Assembly (NCBI GenBank): GCA_040772005.1
Contig: JAXGYZ010000002.1
Span: 573,061-637,060, forward strand
DNA: 64,000 nucleotides
Direction of reading: 5' to 3'
From: Anaerolineae bacterium
Lineage (GTDB): Bacteria; Chloroflexota; Anaerolineae; CG2-30-64-16
Of this stretch, positions 7,924-43,537 are shown piece by piece. Below the pieces are notes generated by a model. It was not told where the DNA came from. It made no database searches and was given only the letters and a program-made list of their open reading frames with translations. Both the position numbers and the translations under genes were made by a program. How positions within the stretch are numbered: the first letter of the stretch is position 1; every line of letters begins with the position of its first letter.

Positions 7924-8013
7924 GATTGAAGATTGAAAATTGAAGATTGAAGATTACAGACGAGGCGGCCATGTTTTGGCAATCTTCAATCTGTAATCTT
8001 CAATCTTCAATCC
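7924..8013. repeat. GATTGAA heptamer-repeat element forming a long perfect hairpin (gattgaagattacaga...tctgtaatcttcaatc)
   Basis: Tandem GATTGAA units in both arms; begins immediately after the gdh stop codon. Related copies at 12033-12106, 42848-42877 and 34635-34690. Confidence 0.7.
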
Positions 8014-8031
8014 GTAATCGTGGAGGGTGTG

Positions 8032-13135: not shown

Positions 13136-14211
13136 GGATTGGATATGCCTTTTGTCGGGCCGCGCTGCTGCTCGTGAGAGCGAACAAAGTACCAGAGACT
13201 GAATGCCGCTACTGGGATCACGATTGCGATTGATAGAGATACTCCTGGCACAGACTGTACCCATGCAACAGCCAGCACTCCACCAAGAGCAGCAAGGGAT
13301 GCGTAGAGTATTGTGACGCTCTTGTGTGAATGGTCGAGGATTATCAGGCGCTGGTATAGATGTGATCGGTGTGCTGCAAAGACATTCTCATGGCGCACAA
13401 GTCTTCGCAGAAATGTGAAACTCGCATCGAAAACGAATGGCCATACAGCCAGTAGGCCTACTAGTGCCATTCGATGATCTTGTTGGTGTGCGGCAATTGT
13501 CAGTGTTGCGAGGACCGATCCAATGAAAGCACTGCCCACGTCGCCCATGAAAATGCGGGCTGGGGGCCAGTTGTCAGCAAGGAAAGCCGCACTTGCTCCG
13601 GCCAATACCAACCCTGTCAATCCGACACCCGTTAATCCGCTGGTGAACCCTACCACTGCCCAGGTGATTCCAGCGATAACGGCTTGGCTTCCCGCAATGC
13701 CGTCAATCCCGTCCATAAAGTTATAGGCATTGGTCAAGCCGACTAACCACATAAGTGTCAACGGCACACCCATCCATGCAAGGTGGATCTCTCCAATCAG
13801 AGGAAGCGTGATCAAATCCCAGTAGTCGACGCCGAGCATTATCGTAAGGGCGGCTAGAATGTGAGCAATCAGTCGGACTAAATTAGGTAGTGAACGAAGG
13901 TCGTCTATCAAGCTCACCAAGGCGACGAGAGTCCATGCGGCCGTGACTAGCAGTAGAGCAGTCCAGTAGGCTGAGGCGAAGGCGACGTTGGCGGATACAG
14001 TCAGAGCAATTGTAACAACTACAATGGCGAGACCTCCACCGCGCGGGATTGGTCGGCTATGGGAACTGCGTTCGTTTGGGATATCCAGGATCATATGATC
14101 CTCTGCAAATTGCCTGATCGCACGCACGCCCAGCCGCGACAGCAGGTAAGCACATGCGGCTATGATGCCGAGGGCCAGTGGGGCGATTTGAGGGGTCTCT
14201 TCACTCAGCAC
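13132..14211 (-). CDS. Undecaprenyl-phosphate sugar-1-phosphate transferase (WecA/WbpL-like; MraY/GT4 family)
   Basis: DIPNERSSHSRPIPRGGG and NAYNFMDGIDGI motifs; 10-11 TM helices. GTG start at 14211 chosen (overlaps the upstream stop by 11 nt). The TTG at 14319 would overlap 118 nt. Confidence 0.7.
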   Translation of the reverse strand: MLSEETPQIAPLALGIIAACAYLLSRLGVRAIRQFAEDHMILDIPNERSSHSRPIPRGGGLAIVVVTIALTVSANVAFASAYWTALLLVTAAWTLVALVSLIDDLRSLPNLVRLIAHILAALTIMLGVDYWDLITLPLIGEIHLAWMGVPLTLMWLVGLTNAYNFMDGIDGIAGSQAVIAGITWAVVGFTSGLTGVGLTGLVLAGASAAFLADNWPPARIFMGDVGSAFIGSVLATLTIAAHQQDHRMALVGLLAVWPFVFDASFTFLRRLVRHENVFAAHRSHLYQRLIILDHSHKSVTILYASLAALGGVLAVAWVQSVPGVSLSIAIVIPVAAFSLWYFVRSHEQQRGPTKGISNP

Positions 14212-15214
14212 TTGGGAGAACCCCGGAACGGCGCATTTCTGCGATGGTATCTTGCCAACCGAAAGATAAGTTATAGGCAGGCATGAAGTTGAGCTCCTGC
14301 ATGATCTTTGACCCGTCAACTGCTACGTTTTCAAGATACCTTTGCAGCATAGTACTGCTGACAGGCAACGGGTGTTTGATGATGCGTGAGAAGCCATCCG
14401 CAATCCGAAGCCCAAGCCGAATAGGCGCGACAGGCAACGCAATGTGCGGCGGTGGACGGCCTAGCCCATCGCAGATCGCTTCGATGATCTCGTGCAGCGA
14501 GTGGGTCTCGCCATCCGTCACATTATATATCTGCCCTGCTGCGCGAGGATGCTCGATGGCCGCCTGCACCGCGTTCGCCATGTCTTTATCGTAAATCAGC
14601 GTGCGCCGATTCCCACCGCTACCGATGGGCACAAAGCGCCTTTGCGATAGTGCGTACACGAGTCGGCTATAGTTGCCTTTGACGCGGCTGCCATACACTG
14701 ACGCAAGCCGGAGCACCACACCTAGCGGACCACCGTCCGGGCCTGCTGCAGATAACACGATGCGTTCGGCGGCGAACTTCGTTTTTGCATAGTACGTATC
14801 TGGCATGACCGATGATGACTCGTTAAGGAGGCCACCCATTCCAGCACCGTAGACGGCGATCGTGCTCAGGAAGACCAATCGCCGTACGCCAGCGCACCGG
14901 GCAGCTTCCACAACGGTGGCCGTCCCTTGCACGTTGACCCGCTCATACTCGGCATATAGATGCTGCGCTGGATTGCTGATGTGAAGAAGAGCGGCCATAT
15001 GAACAACATGAGTTACGTCTCGCATGGCCGCATCAATGAGATACTGGTCACAGATATCCCCAGTTAACCAGTCGTTGAGTTTTGCCTTAAGGGCTGCGGG
15101 TGGTTCCTGCAAGGCTAAACCACGGACGCGGTAGCCACTGGCGGCCAACTGATTGACAACCGTGGGTCCCAACGCGCCGGTGGCACCGGTAACAAGGATC
15201 AGCCGCTCATCCAT
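14201..15214 (-). CDS. NAD-dependent epimerase/dehydratase (SDR family; UDP-sugar 4-epimerase-like)
   Basis: LVTGATGALG Rossmann motif, YAKTK catalytic motif. ATG overlaps the upstream stop (ATGGATGA). Confidence 0.8.
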   Translation of the reverse strand: MDERLILVTGATGALGPTVVNQLAASGYRVRGLALQEPPAALKAKLNDWLTGDICDQYLIDAAMRDVTHVVHMAALLHISNPAQHLYAEYERVNVQGTATVVEAARCAGVRRLVFLSTIAVYGAGMGGLLNESSSVMPDTYYAKTKFAAERIVLSAAGPDGGPLGVVLRLASVYGSRVKGNYSRLVYALSQRRFVPIGSGGNRRTLIYDKDMANAVQAAIEHPRAAGQIYNVTDGETHSLHEIIEAICDGLGRPPPHIALPVAPIRLGLRIADGFSRIIKHPLPVSSTMLQRYLENVAVDGSKIMQELNFMPAYNLSFGWQDTIAEMRRSGVLPSAE

Positions 15215-16472
15215 GATTGTCCGGTGAAGCGTTCGTTACTTCTGCAATCACCCGATCATACGCCCCGATCACCGCGCTCTTGCTGTAGCGTTCTACAACC
15301 CATTTGCGCGCGTTTGCACTCATCGTCCGGGCCAAGTCCGGTGAATCATGTAAGCGTCGAATCGCTGCGATCATCTGGGGGGCAGACTCTGGCTCTACGA
15401 CGATTCCGCTATTTGAGCTAAGAAGTAGCTCCGCTGTCTCCGTTCCAGGTTCGCAAGCCGCTACAATCGGCCGTCCAGCCGCCATCGCGGTGTAAATTTT
15501 GGAGGGAACTGTGTCATACGAAAAACCCGATTGCATGGGAGAAACACAGATATCGGCTGTCGCATAGGTCTCTGGGATGCGGTTATAGGGCTGGAAGGGC
15601 AGTAATCGAATGTTGTTGAGCCCAGAAGCAGCGATCGCGTGTTCGAGCTTTGGCCTTGCTGCGCCGTCGCCAATAATCAACACGACAATATCGGTATCCA
15701 TCGCAAGTGCGTGTGCAACATCGACCAGTATCTCCAAACCTTGCGAAAGCCCGATATTGCCAGCGTAAAACACGACAAACTTGTCCTCCAGTCCGAATTC
15801 CTTAGCAAAGCTATTGTCTTTTGGCGTGGGGGATAGCCAATCGGTATCAACAAAGTTCGGTGTGAAGTGCAACTTGCTGTCCGGTACCCCGCGTGATACC
15901 AGGCTGCGGTTGAAGCTTTGAGCAATGGAGGTAATCGCAGCAGAATGATTGTACACAAACCGTTCGATAGCGTAAGCGAGCGCGATCAGAGCCTTGTTCT
16001 TTAGCAACCCCATGCGAATAGGTGCGTCTGGCCACAACTCCCGAACATCATAGATCATCTGGCCCCGCAGAAACACCTTCAATAAGAATCCATTGAGACC
16101 TAAGGTAATCGGCGGAGAAGGAACAAAAATGATATCCTGCCGCCCCAGTCTGGTCAATCCCACCACTAGAGTCAACACCTGAAACCACAGGTAGTCGAGT
16201 GCCCGACGCCAAATGCGTTGTCGCTTGAGCGGCATATACACGCGTACGACCTGCACACCTTTCTCGCTCGTTTCCGTATAGAGGGTGGGAAGTCGGCGGC
16301 GATAGATCGGGTTCTTGAGCACCTCGGGTGAGGGATTGTAGTGCGGCATCGAAGTCAGCACCGTGACCGTATGCCCGCGTTCCTGCAGACCGTGAGCCAG
16401 GTCAGTCATCAAGTTCGCAGTGGAAACCGTGTCCGGTCCGAAGACCAGGGAAAGCATCAGGACCCGGCTCAT
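15207..16472 (-). CDS. Glycosyltransferase family 4 (WbuB/WcaI-like)
   Basis: GT-B C-terminal motif SGFSYDTVPSKIYTAMAAGRPIV. Start at 16472 overlaps the upstream stop (ATGA). Confidence 0.75.
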   Translation of the reverse strand: MSRVLMLSLVFGPDTVSTANLMTDLAHGLQERGHTVTVLTSMPHYNPSPEVLKNPIYRRRLPTLYTETSEKGVQVVRVYMPLKRQRIWRRALDYLWFQVLTLVVGLTRLGRQDIIFVPSPPITLGLNGFLLKVFLRGQMIYDVRELWPDAPIRMGLLKNKALIALAYAIERFVYNHSAAITSIAQSFNRSLVSRGVPDSKLHFTPNFVDTDWLSPTPKDNSFAKEFGLEDKFVVFYAGNIGLSQGLEILVDVAHALAMDTDIVVLIIGDGAARPKLEHAIAASGLNNIRLLPFQPYNRIPETYATADICVSPMQSGFSYDTVPSKIYTAMAAGRPIVAACEPGTETAELLLSSNSGIVVEPESAPQMIAAIRRLHDSPDLARTMSANARKWVVERYSKSAVIGAYDRVIAEVTNASPDNHG

Positions 16473-17332
16473 TTGGAACCTCGCCCCTTGCGCAGCTCGA
16501 AGTAGCAGGCGTCCACATAGAATCTGAACCACAGGCCGTGCAGACCATGATAAATCAAGCCTTCGGGACCATCCAGGAAACCGCCTCGCACGATATAGCG
16601 GATGAGAAAGTAAAGCACTGCGCGCAGGAAGAGCGGACCGCGTTCATATACGGATGCCCTGAGCCAGCGGCGGCGCTGAATCGGTGAGCCCATCAGCTTG
16701 GCTTCAAGGAGTCCATTGCCTGTTTCGCCTGCCCGTTTCAGAAGATGCTGGGCTTCCATCTGCGCCCAGCGGTTGTGTCGGGCTGTCCAGGACGAGAGCG
16801 ACGTAGCCGTGACTTCGATCAGGTCGGCTTCGAGCTGTTCCACTTTGCCGTGGACGAGAAAGTGTTGGTCGTATTCCCGTTCTTCGCAGCGCCCCGCACT
16901 GCGTTGAAAGATGCGGCAATGATAAGTAGGATAAATGCCGCCATGAAGCATGTAGCGGCCGAGGAACTCGATGCGACGGCGGATGAGCAGCCCTGCAACC
17001 GACGCATATGACGGATCGCTGAAGAAATGTGTAAGCGCCGAGACCAACTCCGGAGTCGCTCGTTCATCCGCGTCAACATGAAATACCCAGTCGAAGCTTA
17101 ACGGAAGGTGTTCCTGCGCCCAGTTGCGCTGTCGCGAGTAATTCTCGAAGGGGTGAGATACGATCTTGTCGGTAAAGCTCCTAGCAATGCTGAGAGTTGC
17201 ATCGGTGCTGCCGGAATCGACGACGAACATCTCGCCGGCCCAGCCTGCCAACGATTGCAGACAGGCCTGGATGTTAGATTCCTCGTTGAGGGTCAGGACG
17301 ATGACGGAGATGGGCAGTGTATTTGCGTTCAT
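16469..17332 (-). CDS. Glycosyltransferase family 2
   Basis: ISVIVLTLNEE...VVDSGSTD...HVDADE (DXD) motifs. Confidence 0.8.
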   Translation of the reverse strand: MNANTLPISVIVLTLNEESNIQACLQSLAGWAGEMFVVDSGSTDATLSIARSFTDKIVSHPFENYSRQRNWAQEHLPLSFDWVFHVDADERATPELVSALTHFFSDPSYASVAGLLIRRRIEFLGRYMLHGGIYPTYHCRIFQRSAGRCEEREYDQHFLVHGKVEQLEADLIEVTATSLSSWTARHNRWAQMEAQHLLKRAGETGNGLLEAKLMGSPIQRRRWLRASVYERGPLFLRAVLYFLIRYIVRGGFLDGPEGLIYHGLHGLWFRFYVDACYFELRKGRGSK

Positions 17333-18460
17333 CTATGGTCTGATGATTTCTCCGTACGCTTCGATGGTCTGCATCGCGGTCTTACGCCACGAAAACCGGC
17401 CGACATGCTCTCGCCCACGCTGCCGCAACTCCATTTGGAGCGCCTCGCTATTAGCAACGGACGCGATCTTAGCGGTCATATCATCGATCGAGAAAGGATC
17501 GAAAAAGACAGCGGCATCACCGCCGACTTCAGGCAACGATGCCACGTTGGAGCAGAGCACCGGGACATCGGCCGCCATAGCTTCAAGCACCGGCAATCCA
17601 AACCCTTCGTAAGTCGACGCAACGATAAAGGCAGCTGCATGGTGCAATAACACCTGCAAAGTGCGATCCTCAAGGTAGCCAGTCAGGATCAAGCTTCCAG
17701 CTTCAAGGCCTGCCGTGTAGGCAGCAATGTCATCCGGGGTCAGGCGTCCCACGATCACCAATTGCTGCCTGACGTTGTGCTGTTCGTGCGCCTGCCGAAA
17801 GGCTTGAATCAGTGCAGGGATGTTCTTGTTGGGGCCGAGATTGCCGAACGCCATCAGATAGGGTTGTCTGATGCCGAAACGTTCAAGCTCAGCCTTCATC
17901 TCCTCGCGGGACATTTGCAGCGGCGGGCGCTTGCGGGCTGCATCCTCAATCACTACGACGCGGTCAGCCCGGATGTTTGGATAGGCATCCAGGATTTGCC
18001 TCTTTGAGAAGTGTGATGGAGTAATGATGCGGTCGGAGCGTGAAGCAGATTGATGAACAAAGAAGGCCAAGGCTGCGCGTTTCCTGGCGGGCATCTGTGC
18101 GCCGAAGGCCTGGTAGTTCAGATCGTGAATCGTGACTATAGACGGGATGGGCAAGCAAAGGGGAGCTACATAGCCGAGAGAATGCAGCAGACTTAGTCTG
18201 TACGGTCGAACAAGAAAGGGCAGATAGAGCTGTTCAAAAATGTAGCGGCGAACCCGATGCACTGCCGATATGGGGCACACAATTCGGTGGAAATTGGGTT
18301 TAGCGGGCAGAGGCCACTCTCGCGATTCGCGATTGACAAAGACAAAGAATTCACATCGCTCGCCGGTTTCAGCGAACCCATCAAGCAAGCCGGCGGCATA
18401 TGTCTCGGTTCCGCCGACAATACCTGGCAAAAGATAGGCCAGATTCAGGCCGATCCGCAT
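17333..18460 (-). CDS. Glycosyltransferase family 4
   Basis: STYEGFGLPVLEAMA motif. Start chosen at MRIGLNLAYLLPG (18460), 5 nt after the upstream stop. The upstream in-frame extension is AT-poor filler. Confidence 0.7.
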   Translation of the reverse strand: MRIGLNLAYLLPGIVGGTETYAAGLLDGFAETGERCEFFVFVNRESREWPLPAKPNFHRIVCPISAVHRVRRYIFEQLYLPFLVRPYRLSLLHSLGYVAPLCLPIPSIVTIHDLNYQAFGAQMPARKRAALAFFVHQSASRSDRIITPSHFSKRQILDAYPNIRADRVVVIEDAARKRPPLQMSREEMKAELERFGIRQPYLMAFGNLGPNKNIPALIQAFRQAHEQHNVRQQLVIVGRLTPDDIAAYTAGLEAGSLILTGYLEDRTLQVLLHHAAAFIVASTYEGFGLPVLEAMAADVPVLCSNVASLPEVGGDAAVFFDPFSIDDMTAKIASVANSEALQMELRQRGREHVGRFSWRKTAMQTIEAYGEIIRP

Positions 18461-18465
18461 ATCTG

Positions 18466-19989
18466 TCAGTTCTGCGAAAGGCTTGTCTGCACTAACTTCT
18501 TCATCCACTGTTGTTTTCTCTGTGGTAGTCGCTTGCTCAATGCCACGATTCCTGCGGCGAATAGGACAGGATACAAGAACCCTGGGCTTAGATAGCGATA
18601 GGTCACAAGGAGCCAAACGGCCAGCATCGCGCCGACCGCAAATTGGTAAGGGTCCTCGGCATAAGACACACGGGAGAGGAATCTGTCACACCTTACTGAA
18701 ATGAAGGCAAGGATAACGCCAATCATGATGGGCCCTAGCCAGCCCCAACTCATGTAATATTGACCCACAATGCCTGGGAAGGTATTACCAGATTCTGTAT
18801 AGATATCAATTCCCCAACGCATCAGGGTGTAGAACCACGCCACCTCGGTGGCGGGCTTATTTTCCCACAGGAAACGCGGGATGGGGGAGACTGCGAATTG
18901 AAGCAGGGCACTCTCCCGAAAATAGTCATGATAGCTTGGTACTATTGCTACTGCGAGGGCAGTTTCAGAGAAGTAGTCGGTTGTACCGCTGAGTGTTGCC
19001 CAGTTGTCCAAAAGCAGATCGGCCGTCTCATATCGAGTGTAGCTGTATCGGAAGAGGAGTTGAAACTGCAACGCAAAAAACAACACTATGGTAAGGATCA
19101 ATAAAACCGTAGTTGCATAAAACTTTGAGCGAGTCCAGGCTCTAGTGAATAGGAGAACAATGGCCGGGAGTAACATCATGGCTGTTAGTGAGCGTGTTCC
19201 CTGATCAAAGAAGAGAAGAACGGTAACGATCGATGCTACGAATGCACCTGCGATGCGCAGGCCGATTTTCACTCTTTTATCTTGTAGAACAACAAGAAGT
19301 AGACCTGCACCGGCTGTCATGGCACTTCTGGTCAGGTATAGGACTGCGCTGATGCGATTGCCCAGATTCTCCGTATACGTCCACGGTTTATCAACGGCTC
19401 GACTTTCCAAAATGCTACCAACAATGTCCCGAAAAGACATGCCTGATAGCAGATATGGAAGGAAGCCTATCGCACAGGCCAAAAGGGCTATCGTTACCAG
19501 CACAGCAGGGTTGCTAGATGACACTGGTTGCTGCTCGGGGCTGTTGCGGCTCTGACGCCCGAATAATCGCGATGCTAGTACCCAGACGAAGAGAAACAGG
19601 GCAAGGTAAAGTATTGTAAGAAGGAGGGTTTCTTCGTGGATGAATATCGGTAGTTCATCACTGAATCCGCTTGATGTCGTCCACAGGTTGAGTAGTCCGG
19701 GCAATGAATACCATCCCACGAAGCCAAGCATAATCATCAGTCTGCCCCATCGACGTGACTGGATACTCGGCATTGCGTGCTTTAGCAGGAGAGAAAGAGA
19801 AGCAGAAAAAAGCACAGCAGTGAGGAGACGAAGTGTAGTGTCGCCATGCGCTTGTAATACTACGGATATCAGTGCAGCAATGAGGGGCAGGGCAGCTAAC
19901 CAAAAATCGAAGAGCATCTGACGAAAACCGCTCTTCCTGTCGGCACTCAATCGGCGCTTAGATGGCACTGCACGCACCAGAGGAGTCAT
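18466..19989 (-). CDS. O-antigen/EPS polymerase-like polytopic membrane protein (Wzy-like)
   Basis: About 12 predicted TM segments with a large loop; position within the glycan operon; low GC. No diagnostic motif, so the call is by context. Confidence 0.5.
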   Translation of the reverse strand: MTPLVRAVPSKRRLSADRKSGFRQMLFDFWLAALPLIAALISVVLQAHGDTTLRLLTAVLFSASLSLLLKHAMPSIQSRRWGRLMIMLGFVGWYSLPGLLNLWTTSSGFSDELPIFIHEETLLLTILYLALFLFVWVLASRLFGRQSRNSPEQQPVSSSNPAVLVTIALLACAIGFLPYLLSGMSFRDIVGSILESRAVDKPWTYTENLGNRISAVLYLTRSAMTAGAGLLLVVLQDKRVKIGLRIAGAFVASIVTVLLFFDQGTRSLTAMMLLPAIVLLFTRAWTRSKFYATTVLLILTIVLFFALQFQLLFRYSYTRYETADLLLDNWATLSGTTDYFSETALAVAIVPSYHDYFRESALLQFAVSPIPRFLWENKPATEVAWFYTLMRWGIDIYTESGNTFPGIVGQYYMSWGWLGPIMIGVILAFISVRCDRFLSRVSYAEDPYQFAVGAMLAVWLLVTYRYLSPGFLYPVLFAAGIVALSKRLPQRKQQWMKKLVQTSLSQN

Positions 19990-19995
19990 GCTGGC

Positions 19996-21021
19996 CTACT
20001 CACAGTCAACTTCTGTGTTCTCTCGACTACTAGTAGCATCGAGCAAGGATTCTACTTCATGTATGATGGAGGGCTCCTCAGTGGTTGATATGGTTTTCAG
20101 CCTGCTATGAGCAGATCGATAACAGCCTTTCATGATCTCTAGGCGAGCCAGTTCTAGTTCAAGCGGGGCATACTTGGTTGCCAGTTGACTTCCTGCCTTA
20201 AGAATCTGCCAGGCTCGTGCTACATCTCCATTCTCTAGTAAAGCCTTAGCAGTCCAAAAGTAGGTTGCTGGCTGACTATCATCTAGCTCCAGCGCGTGAA
20301 GAAAATGTATGATAGCCTTCTCAGTTTCGCCATGAAGAAGTTCTTTCTGTCCGAGCAGTGACTCAGAGGTCACGCTATGCTCGACCGCTTCAAAACTCTC
20401 ACACGGATCTAGAATAATGCTGCTCTCACCGGTGCGAATAGCTTCCATGCACAGATACATATACATATGAGACTTGCGAGCATCCAGTGTGGGGTCGATG
20501 TCTTGTGCAATTTGAAAGTATTGTTTGGCAGCATCTTCATCATGATCGAGTTCGATCTTAAGCCTCCCTTGCCCGACGTACCAAAGAGCTGAATCAGGGG
20601 TGAACTGTCGGAGTGTCAAGGCTTCTTCTGCCTTGCCCTGAGCTTCTAGAACTTGGCTGAAGTAAATGATGTCGGCTTCGTCTGGTGTTAGTCCACGTGA
20701 AAGGGCAAAGCGAAGCCAATTTGCCAGCACTTCACTACTCTCACATGACAGGAATAGGTAGCGCGTCAGCCGATACTTGCTAGTCGGCTGTGTCTCCATT
20801 GGTGGGGTCCTCAAAGAGGCTTCGTTGGATGGACAGAGTAATCGCTTGGACTCCTGAGATAGGAGCGGCCATATCCCGGGTACATGATGGGGCAAACTGG
20901 AGCGCATTACAGACAAAGTTCGGAATGAAAGACGCAGAGTGTCCCAGGGAAAGCCAAGGACGGTAATACTGCATGCAACGAATATCGCGACGAGCGAAAT
21001 GAAGAACCGGCGATCAGTCAT
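19996..21021 (-). CDS. Hypothetical membrane-anchored protein with TPR-like repeats
   Basis: Single N-terminal TM (FFISLVAIFVACSITVLGF), then helical repeat region. Start ambiguous (21021, 21033 or 21057). Confidence 0.45.
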   Translation of the reverse strand: MTDRRFFISLVAIFVACSITVLGFPWDTLRLSFRTLSVMRSSLPHHVPGIWPLLSQESKRLLCPSNEASLRTPPMETQPTSKYRLTRYLFLSCESSEVLANWLRFALSRGLTPDEADIIYFSQVLEAQGKAEEALTLRQFTPDSALWYVGQGRLKIELDHDEDAAKQYFQIAQDIDPTLDARKSHMYMYLCMEAIRTGESSIILDPCESFEAVEHSVTSESLLGQKELLHGETEKAIIHFLHALELDDSQPATYFWTAKALLENGDVARAWQILKAGSQLATKYAPLELELARLEIMKGCYRSAHSRLKTISTTEEPSIIHEVESLLDATSSRENTEVDCE

Positions 21022-22216
21022 TGCGCAGTCCATCTTTGTTGCTGATGCTAGTTGCATCGATGATCTGCCTGACAGCTTCTCGAAAGCTTCGGCGGAAGGT
21101 TTCGGGTGAGTAGCGAGTGTCGGTTGCGTGCAGCACCTTTTCTGCGCGCCGACGGCAGTCGTCTGGGCTGGCGGTACTAGTCTCAACGATCACTGAGCGA
21201 ACAGCCGCGACTGTCAGTGATTCGATGCGGTAGCCCCAGTCTTCCAGGTCGATATTTGCTGTGACCGGCAGGATGGGTATCAGCCCATGCGCCATGCACT
21301 CGATGACAGAGCCGGGCTGTCCTTCCGCACAGGTCGGCAGAATCACCCAATTGCACATCGCGGCCAGTTTTCTGAACTCCGGCGACCGCATCTTCACGTA
21401 ACCATGGACATGAACATTTCTGTTCCCGCTGAGTTCAGCAGCAAAGGCACGAGCGAACTCGGGCTGAATGTGCTGGCAGACGTGAAGGTGGAGGTCGGTG
21501 TCGTGAAAGGCCTGGAGCAGCAGGTCAAGCCCCTTGTGAACATTCCCGAGACCACTGAAGAACAAGAAATGCTTCCGCCCTGCCTCAAAATCCTTTTCAG
21601 CCAAGTTGATGCCATCGAGGGGATAAGCTGCGTTGCATACGGATACTACATTCTTGAGATGAGCAAAAGTCTGCGCCGCAGCTTCGTTCCCCAGGCAGAT
21701 CGTGCCATCTGACAGCCGGTGTGCCTCCTCTTCTATCGGTGAGCTGACACGCTCCGGGGGCAGCAGCACGCCCTTGCTAAGCGCGATATCAAAGAGACGT
21801 TGTGCGGCGCGAGTGTTTTGTTCGCGCCAATACAAGCCGGTTGCAAAGTAGACCGTGACGGGTCGATGGCTGAGTAAGCCGACTAGACGGGTAAAATTGA
21901 AGTTCGCATGCCCGATGAAAAGGTCGTAAGCGCGCGTAGGAATCCAACTCTGGTTGGTACAATCCACGATATCGACTTCGAACCCTAGTTCGTTCAGCGC
22001 ACGAGGTATTTCCCTGGCGAGTCCCTGATTGCTGAACTGCGCGGGATCGCGAAATTTTGCTGGCAAGAGGAGAGGATGGACAAGATACGATACGAGCGCT
22101 CTGCGACTGGGAGTGCCCATACAGTATTCGCGGTAACCGCGGACTGTTCGGCGCTTAAGAAGCGCATAGAGGTATTCAAGGACTGCCGCACGCGGCTTTT
22201 GAGTACCTTCTTTCAC
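21014..22216 (-). CDS. Glycosyltransferase (GT-B fold, GT1/GT4-like)
   Basis: C-terminal EGQPGSVIECMAHGLIPI motif. GTG start overlapping the upstream stop (GTGA); an ATG at 22120 is an alternative start. Confidence 0.55.
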   Translation of the reverse strand: MKEGTQKPRAAVLEYLYALLKRRTVRGYREYCMGTPSRRALVSYLVHPLLLPAKFRDPAQFSNQGLAREIPRALNELGFEVDIVDCTNQSWIPTRAYDLFIGHANFNFTRLVGLLSHRPVTVYFATGLYWREQNTRAAQRLFDIALSKGVLLPPERVSSPIEEEAHRLSDGTICLGNEAAAQTFAHLKNVVSVCNAAYPLDGINLAEKDFEAGRKHFLFFSGLGNVHKGLDLLLQAFHDTDLHLHVCQHIQPEFARAFAAELSGNRNVHVHGYVKMRSPEFRKLAAMCNWVILPTCAEGQPGSVIECMAHGLIPILPVTANIDLEDWGYRIESLTVAAVRSVIVETSTASPDDCRRRAEKVLHATDTRYSPETFRRSFREAVRQIIDATSISNKDGLRND

Positions 22217-23580
22217 GACTTCAAGTCCAAGTCGGATAAAATCTGCGCGCGTGTTGCGGATTCACTATTATCATTGCTCGAGGCATGCCAGCGCGCTCGT
22301 GAACGTTGGAATATCCACACAGTAATCGGCAGTTCGAGGAGTACAAGCACGCCTAGATATCCAGCACCTACACCTGTGGCTCCGTATGAGGGAGCCAATA
22401 ACAAAGCGAGAGCGGCGATCACCATACTTCCTACCAGAAACACACCCATCAGTGGTTCGCGCTTGTGGGCCCTCAAGTAGGTGGATAGGCCAGAAAGCAC
22501 AGAACTCACCACCCCCGCGATGAGGAAGACGCCGGCGGGGCCGGGCGGCAATACTCTGCTCGCCAATGGATGCTGCAAGCCCTCCAGAAGCAAGATGAGT
22601 CCCCAGGCGCCCAGCGCCAGGACTAGACCTATTACAAGGGACATGAACAACGAGCGAAAAAACGAACTATCCAGCTCACGCCACTTCCGCTCGGCTACAA
22701 GAACACCATAGCGTGGCGCCTTTGTCACGACCCAGTTCGATGACATAGCCATTACGACGTTGGCGAGGGTGTTTGTCATTCCCATTTGACCAGCCACAGC
22801 CGGGCCGGCGCTCCGGAAGAGCACGGGGGTAAAGAGCTGGCTGGTAAAATATGTGCTGATCCAACTGACCGCAATACGCCATTGTATGGGCCAAACATCC
22901 TGCCGCCAAGCAATCCTGGGCCCATCGGGTGATATCAAGAAAGCCCGGCAGAATGCTGCGTAGCGATGGAGAAAGAAGACACTCCAGACCAACCCACACG
23001 CAGAAGCCAGTGGCAAAGTCCACAGCTTCGCGCCGGAGATAATCGCGGCCCACAGCGCCAGGCCGTTAACGACTTGTTGAACCAACCTATAAAACCAGAA
23101 TGGTGCGACCTCATTGCAGCCCTGCAATAGGTAAAAGAGGGGAGTCAGACATAAGTTCAGCCCTAAACCCAAACACAGGGCCAGCCACGGCAGTTGCCAT
23201 TCGATGCCAGGAGTCGGCGTGCGAGAAAAAAACGCGTAACCACCTGCACCGAGTCCCAGAACGACCAGAACCGCGGCGACACTATACCACTTCATGGATA
23301 GGCGACCCAGACTAATGAGTCGTGAACGCGCTGCTGCGTCTCCCTCAATGCGGAAGCCCGGTGCGAACTTCAGGCGTGCCCACTCATGACTTGCAAACTG
23401 AATGATAGCCTGACCAAGGCCCAGCTCGACAAGAAACTGTAACGCTGTAAGGCTGCCAAAGGTATAGTAATATCCTTGAAGTTCGGGCGTGAAACGCATT
23501 GCGATGAGCAGGGCAGTTATCGGGCCCAGAACAAGGGAAACCAGATTGCCGAGCAGCGCGAACGCCACTGCGCGATCCAT
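22213..23580 (-). CDS. Polysaccharide/O-antigen flippase (Wzx; MOP/MATE-like exporter superfamily)
   Basis: 14-TM topology typical of PF01943 family. First gene of the low-GC island. ATG at 23580 chosen over the TTG at 23607. Confidence 0.7.
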   Translation of the reverse strand: MDRAVAFALLGNLVSLVLGPITALLIAMRFTPELQGYYYTFGSLTALQFLVELGLGQAIIQFASHEWARLKFAPGFRIEGDAAARSRLISLGRLSMKWYSVAAVLVVLGLGAGGYAFFSRTPTPGIEWQLPWLALCLGLGLNLCLTPLFYLLQGCNEVAPFWFYRLVQQVVNGLALWAAIISGAKLWTLPLASACGLVWSVFFLHRYAAFCRAFLISPDGPRIAWRQDVWPIQWRIAVSWISTYFTSQLFTPVLFRSAGPAVAGQMGMTNTLANVVMAMSSNWVVTKAPRYGVLVAERKWRELDSSFFRSLFMSLVIGLVLALGAWGLILLLEGLQHPLASRVLPPGPAGVFLIAGVVSSVLSGLSTYLRAHKREPLMGVFLVGSMVIAALALLLAPSYGATGVGAGYLGVLVLLELPITVWIFQRSRARWHASSNDNSESATRAQILSDLDLKS

Positions 23581-24539: not shown

Positions 24540-25104
24540 CCGAATAGGACACTGATTGAACTGATTGGACTGATCTTCATGTTCTTTTCAGATTCGGCTT
24601 CAGGTGATTCTCGAAGATCTTGCGCACAACGCGAGGCTTGGGACCGAAGTTGACGACCAGTCCGACCTCATAGGGCGTGGCTTTCAGATAGTTCAGCAGC
24701 TGCGCCGCATGGTCCGGTGATATCTCGCTGGCAGCCTTGAGCTCCAACAACACGAGGTCGTTCACGACGAGGTCGGCAAAGTACTCACCCACGATACAAC
24801 CGTCGAAGAACACCGAGATCGGCCGCTGCTGCTGAACCTGCAGGCCATGCGCCCGGAGCCGCATGGCGAAGGCATTCTCATAGACCTTCTCCAGGAAGCC
24901 ATAGCCCAGGGCGTTGTAGACGTCGTAGAATATCTGGATTATCTGCCGGGTCAGCGCACTGTGCTTGTAAGTGGAGACCTCGTACGAACCCCGTTCCTCG
25001 TCCAGTTCGATCATGGTCACATCACTCATAAGACTGATGACGCTAACTTATCAGAATCAGATCAGGTAAATCAGCGTCATCAGTTCAATCAGCGTCCTAT
25101 TCGG
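24540..25104. mobile_element. 565-bp cassette bounded by 24-bp inverted repeats CCGAATAGGAC(A/G)CTGATTGAACTG, carrying a GxxExxY-family gene
   Basis: Left repeat at 24540-24563; right repeat at 25081-25104 is its reverse complement (23/24 identical). The interior is AT-richer than the flanking rfbA and sat. Confidence 0.5.
24577..25029 (-). CDS. GxxExxY protein (PD-(D/E)XK nuclease-like superfamily, TIGR04256-type)
   Basis: [13 protein letters not shown]... and [14 protein letters not shown] core. About 150 aa, typical of the family. Confidence 0.65.
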
Positions 25105-29623: not shown

Positions 29624-29798
29624 CGGCGCGTTTCATACTGGGGGCGAACGCGGCCAGCGCGAATACGCGAATGGTGCTGCGGCGCCGGGCACGGATACAC
29701 GAATATCCCGCCGCGGCGCACACGATTCGCGTATTCGTGGCGCGCCAGCGCATTCGTTTATCCGCGATGGCCGCGCCCCCAACGTGAAACGCACCCAC
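29624..29798 (+). repeat. Family-A structured palindromic repeat, copy 2
   Basis: About 95% identical to 2067-2247. Confidence 0.6.
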
Positions 29799-29895: not shown

Positions 29896-30276
29896 GCCGA
29901 TTGGGGGTGGGCGAAGTCATGTTGCAATCGGGCCTTCCACCTGGCAGTTGAAACTGCGGCTACCCCTACGAAACCGGCCTACGCCGGTTAGTTCCAGTCT
30001 GCGTAGGCAGACTTCGCAAGGGTAGCCGCAACTTCAGTTGCCAGGCGGGTTCACCTGGCGCACTATGAAACCGCCCTGCCGATTGGAGGACAGGGCGAAG
30101 TCATGTTGCAATCGGGCCTTCCACCTGGCAGTTGAAACTGCGGCTACCCCTACGAAACCGGCCTACGCCGGTTAGTTCCAGTCTGCGTAGGCAGACTTCG
30201 CAAGGGTAGCCGCAACTTCAGTTGCCAGGCGGGTTCACCTGGCGCACTATGAAACCGCCCTGCCGATTGGGGGACA
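29896..30276 (+). repeat. Tandem array (about 2.1 copies, period 184 bp) of the family-D highly structured element
   Basis: Units start at 29912 and 30096, with a partial unit end at 29896-29911. Each unit has a ~26-bp outer stem (cctggcagttgaaactgcggctaccc / gggtagccgcaacttcagttgccagg) with G·U wobbles. Each also has two perfect 7-bp hairpins (aaccggc-CTAC-gccggtt; agtctgc-GTAG-gcagact). Confidence 0.7.
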
Positions 30277-32377: not shown

Positions 32378-32398
32378 CTGGTTAATTCCAGCCGATCT

Positions 32399-32580
32399 GT
32401 AATAACCTGGCTCCGGCGCATCCTGAGCGGAGAGCGTCAAGGGCAGGCGTAGCCTGATCCATGGACGCTCGCAGCCGAAGGAGCGCCGCCCGGATGCCAG
32501 CCCGGCTCCTTCGACTACGCCTCGCCCTGGGGGCAAGGCTCCGCTCAGGCTGCCTGGCTGGCCGAACTATCAAAGACTCG
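32399..32580. repeat. Family-F nested-palindrome repeat, copy 1
   Basis: Shares the catcctgagcggag...gtcgaaggagcgcc...ccggctccttcgac...ctccgctcagg architecture with 36822-36992 and 51975-52155. Confidence 0.55.
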
Positions 32581-34634: not shown

Positions 34635-34690
34635 GATTTCAGATTGAAGATGTGCGCAGCGAAGCTGCGCCAAGATTGAAGATTATGGGC
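34635..34690. repeat. Degenerate GATTGAA-family element (agattgaagat-hairpin-aagattgaagatt)
   Basis: Two partial heptamer-repeat arms flank a small gcgcagc/gctgcgc hairpin. Confidence 0.4.
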
Positions 34691-36754: not shown

Positions 36755-36821
36755 CAGATTCACCCCAAGATTACGATGGGCTCACGCCAAGACGCCAAGG
36801 ACTGTAATGCCAACCCATCTT

Positions 36822-36992
36822 TGATAACCTGGTTGCGGCGCATCCTGAGCGGAGGGCGTCAGGGCCAGGCGCAGCCGGGCCCCGACGCCCGCAGTCGAAG
36901 GAGCGCCGTCAGTCCGGCTCCTTCGACTCCGCCTCACCCTGCGGGTGAGGCTCCGCTCAGGATGCCTGGCTGGCTGAATTATCAAGGATTCG
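36822..36992. repeat. Family-F nested-palindrome repeat, copy 2
   Basis: About 85% identical to 32399-32580, including the flanking ataacctggyt...gcctggctggcygaaytatcaa segments. Confidence 0.55.
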
Positions 36993-38496: not shown

Positions 38497-38625
38497 GTGT
38501 TAGAAAAGGACGCGCTTCATGTTGGGAACGCGGCCATCTCGGATAAGCGAATGCGCTTGCGCGCCACGAATACGCGAACCGCGTGCGTCGTGGAGGGGAT
38601 ATTCGCGATGGCCGCGTTCGCCCTC
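38497..38625 (-). repeat. Family-A repeat, copy 3 (reverse orientation, internal about 35-bp deletion)
   Basis: Its reverse complement aligns with 2067-2247 and 29624-29798. Confidence 0.5.
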
Positions 38626-38653
38626 AGAATGGAACAAACCCGTCTTCTTGGTT

Positions 38654-40715: not shown

Positions 40716-40722
40716 ACCAGGG

Positions 40723-40894
40723 CGAAATCATGTTGCACTCGTGCCTTCTGCCTGGCAGTTGAAACTGCGGCTACCACTGCAAAACCGACCTGCGTCGGTT
40801 AGTTTCCAGTCTGCGAAGGCAGACTTCGCAACGGTAGCCGCAACTTCAGTTGCCGGGTGGGTTCACCTGATGCACTCTGAAACCGCCCTGACGA
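40723..40894 (+). repeat. Family-D structured element, diverged single copy (about 88% to array units)
   Basis: Stems are preserved by compensatory changes (aaccgac...gtcggtt versus aaccggc...gccggtt). Confidence 0.6.
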
Positions 40895-41489: not shown

Positions 41490-41538
41490 GGATTGCACTC
41501 TAAACCGATTCTGGAGTGAGTATCGCGGTCAGAACTGA

Positions 41539-41596
41539 GACAGGATTGACAGGATTGACGGGATTATTCCTGTAAATCCTGTCAATCCTGTCCAGT
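41539..41596. promoter_or_regulatory. Long imperfect palindrome of CAGGATTGA units in the divergent promoter region (operator candidate)
   Basis: gacaggattgacaggattgacgggatta / ttcctgtaaatcctgtcaatcctgtc, with 17 bp of exact complementarity. Lies between the divergently transcribed 41489 and 41686 genes. Confidence 0.4.
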
Positions 41597-41685
41597 ATCG
41601 CCTCTGGTTTTCACATGGGACTGAGTATAGCTGGCAGAAACCGCGCGTGTCAATGCCCGTATGTATCTGGTGAGGATGGAGTGGT

Positions 41686-42867
41686 ATGCCCGAACCATCG
41701 GTCCTGGGGGTCTTCGGTGCGGTGATTCTCGCGCGGCTGCTCCTGCCGCTGCTGATCCCGAAATATCCGCTGCCCGCGATCCTCCTCTGCCTCCTCGTGG
41801 ACGGGGTGGACCAGACCGTCTTCCAGACTTTCACGAACGTGCCGCTCGACGGCTATCAGAGCTTCGACAAGGCGCTCGACATCTATTACCTGGTCATCGC
41901 ATATCTCTCGACGCTGCGCAACTGGCGGAACAGCCATGCATTCGGCATCAGCCGTTTTCTGCTCTATTACCGGCTCGTCGGCGTCGTGCTGTTCGAGCTG
42001 TCGGAGTGGCGGCCTCTGCTGCTCATCTTCCCGAACACTTTCGAGTACTTTTTTATTTACTACGAGGCTGCGCGCAGCGGGTGGCACGCGTCGCGGCTCT
42101 CGCGCCGGACACTGCTCCTGGTAGCCGGGGGCATCTGGGTGTTCATCAAGCTGCCGCAGGAGTGGTGGATCCACATCGCGCAACTCGACGTGACCGACCT
42201 GGTCAAGACCAAGCTGTTCGGCGCAGCGGCCAATGCATCCTGGGGCGAGGCCGTCGCAGCCGCGCCACTCGTCCTGGCCGCGCTGCTCGCTACGGTGCTG
42301 CTGCTGGCGTTCGCCGCCTGGCGGCTGGTCATTCCCCGGCTGCCGCGGCCGGAGCACTCGTTCAGGCTGTCGGCGGGCCCGCCGCCCGCGGCCGCGGACA
42401 CCGCGGAGGAACGCCGCACCATCTTCGCCTACACGCGGCGGCCGTTGGACCGCATCGCGCTGGAGAAGGTCGTGCTCGTGACCCTGGTCACGCTGATTTT
42501 TGCGCAAATCCTGCCCGACTTGCAGTCGAGCAACCTGCGGCTGGCGCTGGGCGTGACAGTCATCGCGCTCATCAATTCGGTGGCGAGTTACGGACTGGCG
42601 CACCGCGGCTACGGCTGGCAGAACGCGCTCGTGCATTTCGCCGTACTTGGCACGGTGAACGCCGGTGTCGCGGCTGTCGCTTACCTGCTGTTCGACCTCG
42701 GCCGGCCCATCAACCTGGGGGATGCGTTGTTCCTGTTGCTGCTGCTTACATTGCTGGTCACGCTCCACGACTACTACCAGCCGATGCACGCGGTGCGGTT
42801 CGACGCAGAGGCGCGGGCGGCGAGCGCGATGGTGGGCGAGGGCGGACGATTGAAGATTGAAGATTGA
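41686..42867 (+). CDS. Hypothetical polytopic membrane protein (393 aa)
   Basis: GGAGTGG RBS. About 9 predicted TM segments. The C-terminal ...GGRLKIED* and stop codon are supplied by the GATTGAA repeat. Confidence 0.55.
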   Translation: MPEPSVLGVFGAVILARLLLPLLIPKYPLPAILLCLLVDGVDQTVFQTFTNVPLDGYQSFDKALDIYYLVIAYLSTLRNWRNSHAFGISRFLLYYRLVGVVLFELSEWRPLLLIFPNTFEYFFIYYEAARSGWHASRLSRRTLLLVAGGIWVFIKLPQEWWIHIAQLDVTDLVKTKLFGAAANASWGEAVAAAPLVLAALLATVLLLAFAAWRLVIPRLPRPEHSFRLSAGPPPAAADTAEERRTIFAYTRRPLDRIALEKVVLVTLVTLIFAQILPDLQSSNLRLALGVTVIALINSVASYGLAHRGYGWQNALVHFAVLGTVNAGVAAVAYLLFDLGRPINLGDALFLLLLLTLLVTLHDYYQPMHAVRFDAEARAASAMVGEGGRLKIED

Positions 42868-42877
42868 AGATTGGAGA
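42848..42877. repeat. GATTGAA heptamer repeat (4.3 units) spanning the stop of the upstream gene and the RBS of the next
   Basis: gattgaagattgaagattgaagattggaga. Confidence 0.6.
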
Positions 42878-43537
42878 ATGGAAACGAACATGAGCCGGTT
42901 AGATTTGTTGGCACAGATTCGGGAGCAGGTGGGGGAGCGGCTGGAGGATGGTCGGGTGCAGGGGCGCATGACTTTCTGCATCGAGGACGGCGCGCGGCTC
43001 GGCCCGGAGGCGCGGGAGCCTGCCGGTTACCGCCACGGTTCGCACTTTCACCCGCGCGCGTTCATCTTCGACCCCGTCACGCGGTTCGAGTTCCGGCCCG
43101 ACGGCGAGCTGCTACACTTTGCGGTGGGCGGGCTGCTGTGGCGGGAGGAAGGGGACGGGCCGCGCTACTGCCTGTTCCGGCGGCGGATGCACCCGACGGG
43201 CTATTACACGCTGCCGGCGGGCCACCTGGAACTCGGTGAGACGCCGGACCTGACGCTGCGCCGCGAGGTGTACGAGGAGACCGGCCTGGCAGTGCTCTCC
43301 GCGGAGCTGCTGTTCGAGGGCGAGCTGCCGGACGACTGCCGCCGCGGGGCAGATTACCACTACTGGCACGCGTACCTGTGCCGCTGCATCGGGGAGCCGG
43401 CGCTCTGCAACGAGTCGGACATCGTCGGGTGGTACACGCGTGCAGAGATCCTGCGCGACCTGCCGCTGACCTACCCGACCGGCGTGATTTGCGAGCGGCT
43501 GTTCGGTGAGTGGCCGGGCCGCGTGCGGGGGAGATAA
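42878..43537 (+). CDS. NUDIX hydrolase
   Basis: Nudix box GHLELGETPDLTLRREVYEETGL. Start at 42878 (GGAGA RBS) or 42890. Confidence 0.65.
   Translation: METNMSRLDLLAQIREQVGERLEDGRVQGRMTFCIEDGARLGPEAREPAGYRHGSHFHPRAFIFDPVTRFEFRPDGELLHFAVGGLLWREEGDGPRYCLFRRRMHPTGYYTLPAGHLELGETPDLTLRREVYEETGLAVLSAELLFEGELPDDCRRGADYHYWHAYLCRCIGEPALCNESDIVGWYTRAEILRDLPLTYPTGVICERLFGEWPGRVRGR

Follow-up and report, generated by a model that had tools for sequence, protein, structure and literature searches.

A GATTGAA heptamer array at the 3' end of a membrane-protein gene is an ordinary member of the bacterial heptamer simple-repeat class

The GATTGAA array between a membrane-protein gene and a NUDIX hydrolase gene, at 42848-42877 of the 64,000-nt stretch analysed here (the window), is a true but fairly ordinary member of the known bacterial class of heptamer simple repeats. 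All features of the heptameric SSR class were found: tandem units, dispersed loci, whole-unit copy variation and a mainly intergenic position at 3' ends. We put the probability at about 70% that the array is an old, slippage-prone dispersed simple repeat, whose position yields the stop codon and the tail of the membrane protein as by-products, and that this tail is near-neutral. The array would then be one locus of a GATTGAA family dispersed in a Chloroflexota (Anaerolineae-like) genome, probably present at this junction already in the common ancestor of a genus-level clade, and whole 7-nt units would be gained and lost via replication slippage or unequal exchange, with point mutation in addition.

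The array between the membrane-protein and NUDIX genes

Coordinates of all arrays and arms refer to the forward strand. The junction array consists of (GATTGAA)x3 followed by GATTGGA and GA, and TRF describes it as 4.3 copies of period 7 with 95% matches. By sequence, TRF and a 14-mer search it is a lone forward array without an inverted partner. The membrane-protein gene (41686-42867, forward strand) encodes a multi-pass protein of 393 aa for which no family was matched in Pfam or NCBIfam. Its ORF ends in ...VGEGGRLKIED with the codons CGA TTG AAG ATT GAA GAT TGA, and the stop TGA (42865-42867) lies within the third unit of the array. Part of the arginine codon, the last five residues (LKIED) and the stop are therefore array-encoded, in agreement with the initial annotation, which had the repeat supply the stop and the tail of this gene.

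As 7 is not divisible by 3 and each unit includes a TGA, 21 nt of forward array are enough to give a TGA in all three frames. Where the array sits thus yields the stop codon and the KIED tail automatically. Any ORF entering a forward array would be closed within at most six codons, with D, IED or LKIED as possible tails.

The NUDIX hydrolase gene (42890-43537, forward strand; 215 aa, with a NUDIX domain) starts 22 nt 3' of the membrane-gene stop. In-frame ATGs are present at 42878 and 42890, and gene callers choose the equivalent of 42890 in relatives. The variant last unit GATTGGA creates a Shine-Dalgarno-like GGAGA (42873-42877, forward strand), 13 nt before the ATG at 42890, and this had been proposed as the ribosome-binding site region of the NUDIX gene. 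The proposal is weak because GGAG is not conserved: the relatives L001-3 and L131 have GATTGAAGAATGG where the window has the GGAG-containing stretch before the NUDIX ATG. At its 3' end the array is rich in purines (GGAG or GAAG), which may aid ribosome loading on the NUDIX gene but would not be required for it.

An exact look-up of the window's own membrane protein gave no record, and relatives served for comparison. The junction was compared in L001-L005 and L131, with lengths measured between conserved anchors. An array is present at the same junction in every close relative examined (L001-3, L004, L005 and L131; five other assemblies), and the junction lengths of 93, 86 and 79 nt and of 97 and 90 nt differ in steps of 7. 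Because the arrays of all close relatives differ only by whole units and point changes, we infer that the array is ancestral at this junction and evolves by slippage; the insertion that had been suggested here is not what the comparison shows. In strain L131, which like L130 comes from an indel-rich assembly, the array is 14 nt shorter, so that the 22-nt spacer becomes an ATGA stop/start overlap, and this could change the translational coupling of the NUDIX gene.

The suggestion that the repeat reshapes the C-terminus of the membrane protein was confirmed. Relatives with at least 90% identity have seven tails (RLKIED, GLKIED, GLRIED, RLTIED, RWKMED, RLKIEEWKRT and DDGR, the latter 5 aa shorter), each readable from a variant array, and orthologues with at most 60% identity end quite differently, soon after a conserved ...RF motif. 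The tail lies in a non-conserved cytoplasmic part of the protein and is most likely selectively near-neutral; the spacer is presumably neutral as well. Little is at stake at this locus, where a simple repeat trivially rewrites a C-terminus and the spacing to the next gene.

Several other readings of the junction array were rejected. It is not a plausible phase-variable contingency locus: repeats of that kind switch a gene on and off from its promoter or from the 5' part of its coding sequence, whereas this array sits at the extreme 3' end, where a change of units affects no more than the last 0-10 residues and the distance to the NUDIX gene. As RNA it folds no better than shuffles (z = -0.8), and a promoter and terminator scan around it returned no promoter-like or terminator-like site, which argues against an intrinsic terminator or a REP-like 3' hairpin. 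A G-quadruplex requires a G-tract of at least 3 per unit in at least 4 units, and no G-run here is longer than 2. The CRISPR reading was rejected on the sequence, as constant-length spacers are absent. A search of the whole window against Rfam gave 0 matches at gathering score.

GATTGAA loci in the window

The 14-mer GATTGAAGATTGAA, allowing at most one mismatch, has 11 matches in the window against 0 in 100 shuffles. The heptamer GATTGAA itself is found 14 times on the forward and 8 times on the reverse strand (22 in total), where about 1.25 per strand (about 2.5) are expected. As the initial annotation had listed, four loci are present (7924, 12033, 34641 and 42848), some of them hairpin-forming and one intragenic.

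At the first locus, a forward arm of 4.6 units (7924-7955) starts 4 nt after the gdh stop (7917-7919) and not exactly at it, as had been stated, and an inverted arm of TTCAATC units (7980-8019) lies just before the SD/start of an AhpC/TSA gene. These arms are 91% complementary, with an RNA fold of -46 kcal/mol (z = -6.4). At the corresponding gdh/AhpC junction of L126, the GATTGAA hairpin has a GCTGGAA-type array within its spacer. The intragenic hairpin (forward arm 12033-12060, inverted arm 12076-12105) lies inside a CapD-like gene (11171-13264, minus strand) and has a fold z of about -6 on each strand. Its arms together encode ...NELKIEDSRLKTNPADLQSSIFNLQSH... in frame, in the loop between GHGENSIFDIHNEL and PVIADIR of the CapD-like protein. 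Both hairpins fold (z about -6) but have no U-tract. The array at 34641-34686 begins 9 nt beyond the stop codon of a NERD-like gene and is broken at 34653-34672 by a GC hairpin, GTGCGCAGCGAAGCTGCGCC; the array of strain L131 is uninterrupted.

The loci have more in common than the bare heptamer. Over 30 nt, 12031-12060 matches 42846-42875 exactly, and 7983-8018 is 92% identical to 12076-12111, non-canonical units included; across loci the identity is 86-92%, and this covers the odd units ATTACAG and ATTCCAG. All five GATTGAA arms in the window begin with CGA(T/A)T at the outer end, and different loci have both the boundary CGATTGAAG on the outside and the succession of variant units in common. 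Slippage alone gives no account of the shared unit, of the CGATTGAAG boundary or of the variant-unit order across loci. For the spread of the family, such idiosyncrasies common to several loci point to copying between loci.

These shared features speak for the strongest alternative, in which the arrays are arms of a MITE- or REPIN-like hairpin copied to new sites and the junction array is a solo arm, half of such an element, that has slipped later. We regard this as possible and the less likely reading. It is favoured by the CapD-like loop, where a relative with a 90% identical protein has a GCTGGAA hairpin in place of the GATTGAA hairpin, one orthologous coding loop thus bearing different heptamer units in different lineages, and by the nested array of L126. 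A related 9-mer hairpin, (GACAGGATT)x3 plus its inverse (41539-41592; fold z = -10.3), shares the GATTGA core and sits between the divergent metallophosphoesterase and membrane genes. L001 and L004 lack it, the difference being a 123-nt indel with ACATGG on either side; this presence/absence polymorphism would fit a mobile element, but it is equally explicable as a deletion between the ACATGG direct repeats. Against a mobile element, the loop or spacer is not conserved, the spacers of the two window hairpins being unrelated and only the arms common. Furthermore, no target-site duplication was seen at the GATTGAA loci, paired arms are often very unequal (54 vs 22 and 17 vs 85 nt), and no transposase or RAYT-type gene was identified in the 64-kb window. 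At 42848 itself an insertion event is not visible, the array being present in every relative.

Two groups of palindromic elements invite comparison. REPINs were reportedly defined by Bertels and Rainey in 2011 as inverted REP doublets that form hairpins. Each REP arm is itself an imperfect palindrome, about 20-35 nt long and conserved in sequence, and owes its mobility to a RAYT transposase. GATTGAA loci resemble them as dispersed intergenic inverted doublets of fixed polarity, with long hairpins and many copies per genome. They differ in that their arms are tandem heptamers of variable copy number, their loops are unconserved and a RAYT gene was not found in the 64-kb window. Rickettsia palindromic elements are said to lie in frame within protein-coding genes (Ogata and co-workers, 2000). 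The palindrome at 12033-12105 likewise keeps the reading frame and lies in a surface loop of an enzyme that is conserved elsewhere, whereas its sequence is unrelated, its arms are heptamer arrays and the loop units differ by lineage.

The window has a further pair of inverted repeats. A left arm of 46 nt with (ACTGATTGA)x2.7 (24540-24585) and a right arm of ATCAG-type units (25059-25104), 80% complementary to each other, flank a GxxExxY gene (24580-25029, minus strand). The idea that GATTGAA arrays travel with GxxExxY genes was discarded as a general association, as about 1 Mb of array-bearing loci contains only 2 more of these genes. All three GxxExxY genes stand between inverted short-repeat arrays.

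Relation to described heptamer repeats

The initial annotation was not aware of a described GATTGAA repeat family. This stands for the unit and for the Chloroflexota host lineage, which look undescribed and are the only new elements; the kind of repeat is known (PMC4679880, PMC4692102). No description of the GATTGAA unit or of a Chloroflexota host was found in the searchable literature on heptamer repeats, and a literature search on the bare string GATTGAA returned primers only.

The TAACTGA repeats occur in marine Beggiatoaceae, Cyanobacteria and Bacteroidetes (MacGregor 2015, PMC4679880). The stop codons of 13 upstream ORFs are overlapped by TAACTGA arrays, which lie a few nt before the next start, and in reverse orientation they are translated in a few ORFs, mostly at protein ends (PMC4679880). 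The BOGUAY genome has 169 direct sets and only one indirect repeat (PMC4679880). Like TAACTGA, GATTGAA is a heptamer repeated in tandem that lies mostly between genes, at many loci in a genome, and is scattered across phyla; its forward orientation puts stops in all three frames and it overlaps a stop codon. It is a different family, with another unit and a GC-rich Chloroflexota host. TAACTGA repeats are almost all direct, whereas GATTGAA occurs as inverted pairs that form long hairpins at two of its four loci in the window and at many loci of other Chloroflexota.

Further described heptamer SSRs are GGGAATC of Xanthomonas and GGGGA(T/C)T of Nostoc, of which 89-93% are intergenic and 7-11% overlap ORFs (Rehm et al. 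2015, PMC4692102). Their mean distance of 28 nt from the 3' end of the preceding ORF is much smaller than that from the following ORF; they form 70-75 convergent inverted pairs per genome, and vary in length and sequence at the same intergenic sites between close species (PMC4692102). GATTGAA shares the position near upstream 3' ends, the inverted pairs and the variability at one site. In contrast to these G-tract repeats, which are G-quadruplex-capable, GATTGAA has no G-run and cannot form such structures, and it occurs in other taxa.

Cyanobacterial STRR heptamers were reportedly described by Mazel and co-workers in 1990. The STRR1-3 units of heterocystous cyanobacteria are CCCCAGT, TTGGTCA and CAACAGT. 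Identity with STRR1-3 was rejected, as the unit differs and the closest assemblies are labelled Anaerolineales or Chloroflexi. STRR heptamers are cited for Calothrix PCC 7601 in a later paper (PMC4692102), and heptamers are given as the most abundant of the LSSRs of 5-11 nt (Mrazek et al. 2007, as cited in PMC4679880 and PMC4692102). As summarised in these secondary sources, the LSSR/STRR class also consists of over-represented heptamer tandems in non-pathogens, with polymerase slippage proposed as the cause; the works cited there are class surveys. Among the long SSRs of bacteria, heptamer repeats are the most abundant class, and they lack an accepted origin or function. Strict arm polarity, the orientation bias at 3' ends and an orthologous loop with different units offer testable handles on this question.

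Polarity, orientation and alternative origins

A census took in 198 forward arrays, from the window and from 120 loci spread over many phyla. For 60% of arrays against 9% of random positions, an ORF of at least 120 codons ends in the array or at most 60 nt upstream. Calls of a stop within the array are unreliable in GC-rich DNA: of four such calls in the window, three are spurious frames to which the AT-rich array puts an end. Lone arrays abutting a 3' gene end are forward in 71 and reverse in 20 cases; ORF starts after arrays have no such bias (21 vs 21). Within 100 nt, the arm order GATTGAA-then-TTCAATC was found in 33 pairs and the opposite order in 0, with arm lengths often as unequal as those given above. 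Slippage alone gives no account of the strict arm polarity or of the 71-to-20 bias of lone arrays at gene ends.

Selection of the forward array as an RNA-level cis-element, as a three-frame backstop, a regulator-binding site or a purine-rich ribosome-loading spacer, appears unlikely. The enrichment at 3' ends of co-oriented ORFs and the forward bias there, together with the balance at ORF starts, would suit such a role, as would the retention of the array at the 42848 junction across the clade; regulator binding has been proposed for TAACTGA (PMC4679880). On the other hand, the orientation bias is partly built into the test, as a forward array closes any frame, spurious ones included. Copy number, unit sequence, tail and spacer length vary freely among close relatives, GGAG is unconserved and no binding protein is known.

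We give a small chance to the broader claim that heptamer arrays are written into genomes by a directional process at hairpin-prone sites and are not mere slippage debris, and a smaller one still to its specific form. In the latter, templated 5'-to-3' addition at DNA ends or hairpin tips would place the G-rich strand towards the centre, resembling head-to-head telomere fusion, and the same fragile sites would be rewritten repeatedly. Some chance is left by the 33-to-0 polarity, the forward lone arrays, the rewritten sites, the small, genome-specific repertoire of units (GATTGAA, GGTTGAA, GCTGGAA, ATCAC(A/G)C and others) and the occurrence of the GATTGAA unit in more than ten phyla. Among inverted pairs of other units with a perfectly matching consensus, the G-richer arm comes first in 7 against 0, with one tie, a tally that includes the 9-mer hairpin of the window and the CapD hairpin of L126. 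Xanthomonas GGGAATC pairs are 'always' convergent (PMC4692102). The unequal arms, the second-unit array nested in a hairpin spacer and the orthologous coding loop with different units would also agree with repeated writing. However, the polarity may simply follow from the orientation bias at gene ends, slippage fully explains the variation in steps of 7, a candidate enzyme was not found, and the idea is an analogy. The opposite arm order also occurs: a metagenome scan found it in 6 stretches (4 distinct), all between divergent genes, and yields no ratio, as the same strict pattern finds 0 in the local sample. Viral contigs scanned for both arm orders gave no matches. If true, directional writing would imply that Chloroflexota, Bacteroidota, Cyanobacteria, Planctomycetota and others share some enzymatic activity or mobile agent.

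A chance or assembly artefact, considered because short repeats can be mis-assembled and the L130/L131 assembly is indel-rich, is practically out of the question, as the observed count was reached in 0 of 100 shuffles, the 30-nt array is well below read length and the junction has it in six independent assemblies.

The reverse-frame peptide (FNLQSSI)x6 matched only 9 short hypothetical ORFs in a database search, and long reverse arrays are therefore rare inside real proteins. In annotating such genomes, one should be aware that protein tails of the form KIED, IED or D are repeat-derived, as are small hypothetical ORFs with FNLQSSI peptides.

Repeat array at the membrane-protein/NUDIX junction

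The array consists of three GATTGAA units followed by GATTGGA and GA (42848-42877, forward strand, by direct sequence reading), with a period of 7, 4.3 copies and 95% matches in Tandem Repeats Finder. The repeat is real, non-random and well anchored, since its 14-mer occurs 11 times in the window with at most one mismatch against 0 in 100 shuffles, and the heptamer is found in 14 and 8 copies on the two strands where about 1.25 per strand are expected. The RNA fold of the array did not exceed shuffles (z = -0.8), a scan found no promoter-like or terminator-like sites near it, and no Rfam match was found anywhere in the 64-kb window.

The upstream ORF (41686-42867, forward strand) was read as a multi-pass membrane protein of 393 aa, to which neither a Pfam nor an NCBIfam family was assigned. 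Its terminal codons are CGA TTG AAG ATT GAA GAT TGA; part of the R codon, the whole of LKIED and the stop TGA at 42865-42867 come from the array, and codon reading thus agrees with the initial annotation, in which the repeat supplied both the stop and the C-terminal tail. This tail is an automatic by-product of array position, because a forward array meets TGA in every frame. The three frames of GATTGAAGATTGAAGATTGAA read GAT TGA, ATT GAA GAT TGA and TTG AAG ATT GAA GAT TGA, so that TGA is reached within 18 nt and the possible tails are solely D, IED and LKIED; the reverse complement, (TTCAATC)n, is stop-free and gives the cyclic peptide FNLQSSI. The three-frame stop property was described for TAACTGA by MacGregor (PMC4679880, sections 9 and 15), where the repeat overlaps the stop in 13 ORFs, just upstream of the next gene.

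A database search returned thousands of membrane-protein homologues. Those with at least 90% identity end in RLKIED, GLKIED, GLRIED, RLTIED, RWKMED, RLKIEEWKRT or, with a stop five residues earlier, DDGR, and orthologues at 60% identity or less have other C-termini shortly past a conserved ...RF motif. As neither this protein region nor the tail itself is conserved, the tail is probably near-neutral.

DNA comparison placed an array at the same junction in 6/6 other assemblies. The anchor-to-anchor length is 93 nt in the window, 86 in three relatives (L001-3), 79 in a strain of the same species (L131, about 97% nucleotide identity), 97 in L004 and 90 in L005, with all differences in steps of 7. 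Because all six assemblies carry the array and the lengths move in such steps, it is ancestral to the clade and evolves by whole-unit gain or loss plus point change, a pattern that bears the signature of slippage and not of recent insertion. The proposal that the array was inserted at this gene end is therefore not supported. Orthologues without the repeat but with an identical C-terminus were sought and none was found.

In the same-species strain (L131 11142-11220 compared with window 42824-42916) the array is 14 nt shorter, corresponding to two lost units. The in-frame TGA is gone, and the membrane ORF continues as far as RLKIEEWKRT, its stop overlapping the NUDIX start as ATGA where the window has a 22-nt spacer; the overlap may alter translational coupling of the NUDIX gene. 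This assembly is indel-rich, but a sequencing error is unlikely for a clean 14-nt difference.

The 3' end of the array reads GGAGA (42873-42877, forward strand) and is followed by in-frame ATGs at 42878 and 42890, the latter being the counterpart of the start called in relatives and giving a 215-aa NUDIX protein. The GGAG lies 13 nt upstream of this accepted ATG and stems from the variant unit GATTGGA. It is missing in L001-3 and L131, which read GATTGAAGAATGG, so the array does not hold up as the RBS of the NUDIX gene; L004 has GGAGAGG 9 nt upstream of its ATG. Help with ribosome loading is possible, but the GGAG is neither conserved nor required.

Related repeats in the window

All four GATTGAA loci claimed for the window, hairpin-forming members and one intragenic member included, were recovered. 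At the gdh/AhpC locus a forward arm (7924-7955, forward strand) adjoins the gdh end as annotated, starting 4 nt past the stop and not exactly at it, and an inverted arm (7980-8019, forward strand) extends to the SD and start of the AhpC/TSA gene. From 8034 onwards the window was compared with strain L130: the two are identical through the hairpin and the first AhpC codons, and the abrupt divergence directly after these points to a recombination breakpoint in the hairpin or beside it.

The intragenic hairpin (arms 12033-12060 and 12076-12105) lies in frame in a minus-strand CapD/WbpM-like gene (11171-13264). Both inverted pairs form strong RNA folds (z = -6.4 for gdh/AhpC and about -6 here). 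Positions 12033-12105 encode KIEDSRLKTNPADLQSSIFNLQSH, which lies in the surface loop that separates GHGENSIFDIHNEL from PVIADIR in this conserved enzyme, and the odd unit GATTCCA takes out an otherwise in-frame TGA. Orthologues down to about 65% identity have the same loop with heptamer-derived peptides of different units, confirmed by DNA as GCTGGAA...TTCCAGC in L126 (1955-2064), GGTTGAA...TTCAACC in L127 (11038-11094) and (ATCACAC)x4 in L128 (11060-11087). By simple peptide patterns 39/105 orthologue loops fit one of five unit types, and further loops resemble additional units. The units in Chloroflexota lineages are GATTGAA, GCTGGAA, GGTTGAA, ATCACAC and GGAGCAG-like, mostly as inverted pairs. 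Since unit types are intermixed relative to protein identity, the sequences suggest that a single permissive site, prone to hairpins, has undergone recombination or been replaced repeatedly. The low-GC stretch at about 13400-23500 (51-58%, against about 65% elsewhere) adjoins polysaccharide-synthesis genes and probably represents a glycan gene island that was acquired horizontally or evolves fast.

The fourth locus (34641-34686, forward strand) begins 9 nt past a NERD-like gene and is split by a GC-rich 20-nt mini-hairpin, GTGCGCAGCGAAGCTGCGCC (34653-34672). In Nostoc small dispersed repeats are inserted in heptamer arrays, of which this mini-hairpin is reminiscent.

The core GATTGA is common to two 9-mer families. 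One forms a hairpin of (GACAGGATT)x3 with its inverse (41539-41592, RNA fold z = -10.3); arrays of the other, (ACTGATTGA), lie within 46-nt inverted repeats, CCGAATAGGAC...GTCCTATTCGG (region 24540-25104), around a GxxExxY/PDDEXK_3 gene (24580-25029, minus strand). Across about 1 Mb of retrieved loci just two other GxxExxY genes occur (L098 6480-6782, L068 1599-2036), both flanked by inverted short-repeat arrays, and this layout resembles a cassette carried within the loop of a hairpin.

Additionally, the window has other dispersed intergenic families of about 90-190 nt (29907-30276 and 40718-40894; 2067-2241, 29630-29796 and 38503-38635; 32383-32580 and 36805-36992), and MITE-like elements are suggested by palindromic copies and a tandem duplication of 184 nt (99% identical) among them. 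A coding region of degenerate 18-nt (6-aa) repeats, GTCACCTACGGTGACTTACACGCC-like, at 316-850 appears to encode a repetitive protein.

Distribution, arm polarity and known repeats

The junction itself is of modest interest, and the value for follow-up lies in arm polarity, the bias in array orientation and the coding loop with its several unit types. An exact (GATTGAA)x3 scan of one genome per species gave at least 120 stretches. The matches listed include Bacteroidota (many Prevotella), Chloroflexota, Planctomycetota, Verrucomicrobiota, Acidobacteriota, Desulfobacterota, Gammaproteobacteria, Cyanobacteria, Nitrospinota, Gemmatimonadota, Actinomycetota and Patescibacteria; one (L009) shares its Anaerolineales-labelled MAG with L004. 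Among them, arrays often adjoin arrays of related units, for example CATTGAA, GATTGGA, GATTGTT, GGTTGAA or CAGTGAA.

Of 198 forward arrays (window plus 120 listed loci), 60% have an ORF of 120 codons or more whose end falls in the array or up to 60 nt upstream, against 9% for random positions. This figure carries a caveat, as many of the 'stop in array' calls in GC-rich DNA come from spurious alternative frames that the AT-rich array closes. Lone arrays with a long ORF ending at them number 71 forward and 20 reverse among the matches listed, and ORF starts after lone arrays are unbiased (21 vs 21). All 33 inverted pairs within 100 nt among these matches have the order GATTGAA...TTCAATC. In pairs of other units whose arms match perfectly in consensus, the G-richer arm likewise comes first (7 vs 0, one tie). 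The opposite order, TTCAATC...GATTGAA, is rare, with 4 distinct sequences in 241 million metagenome records (a count, not a ratio); these cases (metagenome contigs L132-L137) separate divergently transcribed genes, and both start codons have a forward array directly upstream.

This kind of repeat is already known from LSSRs, STRRs, GGGAATC/GGGGAYT and TAACTGA. STRR heptamers were reportedly described by Mazel in 1990. Heptamer LSSRs were treated by Mrazek 2007 (via PMC4679880 and PMC4692102), GGGAATC and GGGGAYT repeats in PMC4692102 and TAACTGA repeats in PMC4679880. The junction array has every defining feature of the general heptamer simple-repeat class but differs from STRR, GGGAATC/GGGGAYT and TAACTGA in unit sequence or G-tract. 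For GGGAATC in Xanthomonas, Rehm et al. (PMC4692102, section 10) describe the same 'convergent' pairs, near the 3' end of the upstream ORF. In the open-access literature we came across no account of GATTGAA repeats, nor of any heptamer repeats from Chloroflexota. Readings of the junction array as a contingency locus, terminator, MITE with conserved body or Rfam RNA were each rejected.

Possible copying between loci, and turnover

Identity between loci, together with differences in spacers, indels and the mini-hairpin, argues that slippage does not account for everything and that some copying, conversion or insertion process may move arrays between sites. A stretch of 30 nt is identical between 12031-12060 and 42846-42875, and 7983-8018 is 92% identical to 12076-12111, odd units CTGTAAT and CTGGAAT included. 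The outer end is CGA(T/A)T in 5/5 arms of the window; for the GATTGAA loci we found neither a transposase nor a target-site duplication nor a loop conserved between copies. L126, from the same MAG as L001 (CapD-like protein 90% and, in L001, membrane protein 92% identical to those of the window), keeps the GATTGAA arms of the gdh/AhpC hairpin with GCTGGAA-type units in the spacer. The same-species strain has a plain 34641 array without the GC mini-hairpin. Furthermore, the 9-mer hairpin at 41539 (insert about 41504-41626) is shared by the window and this strain and absent from L001 and L004; the indel is 123 nt with an ACATGG direct repeat on its flanks, including the metallophosphoesterase start codon.
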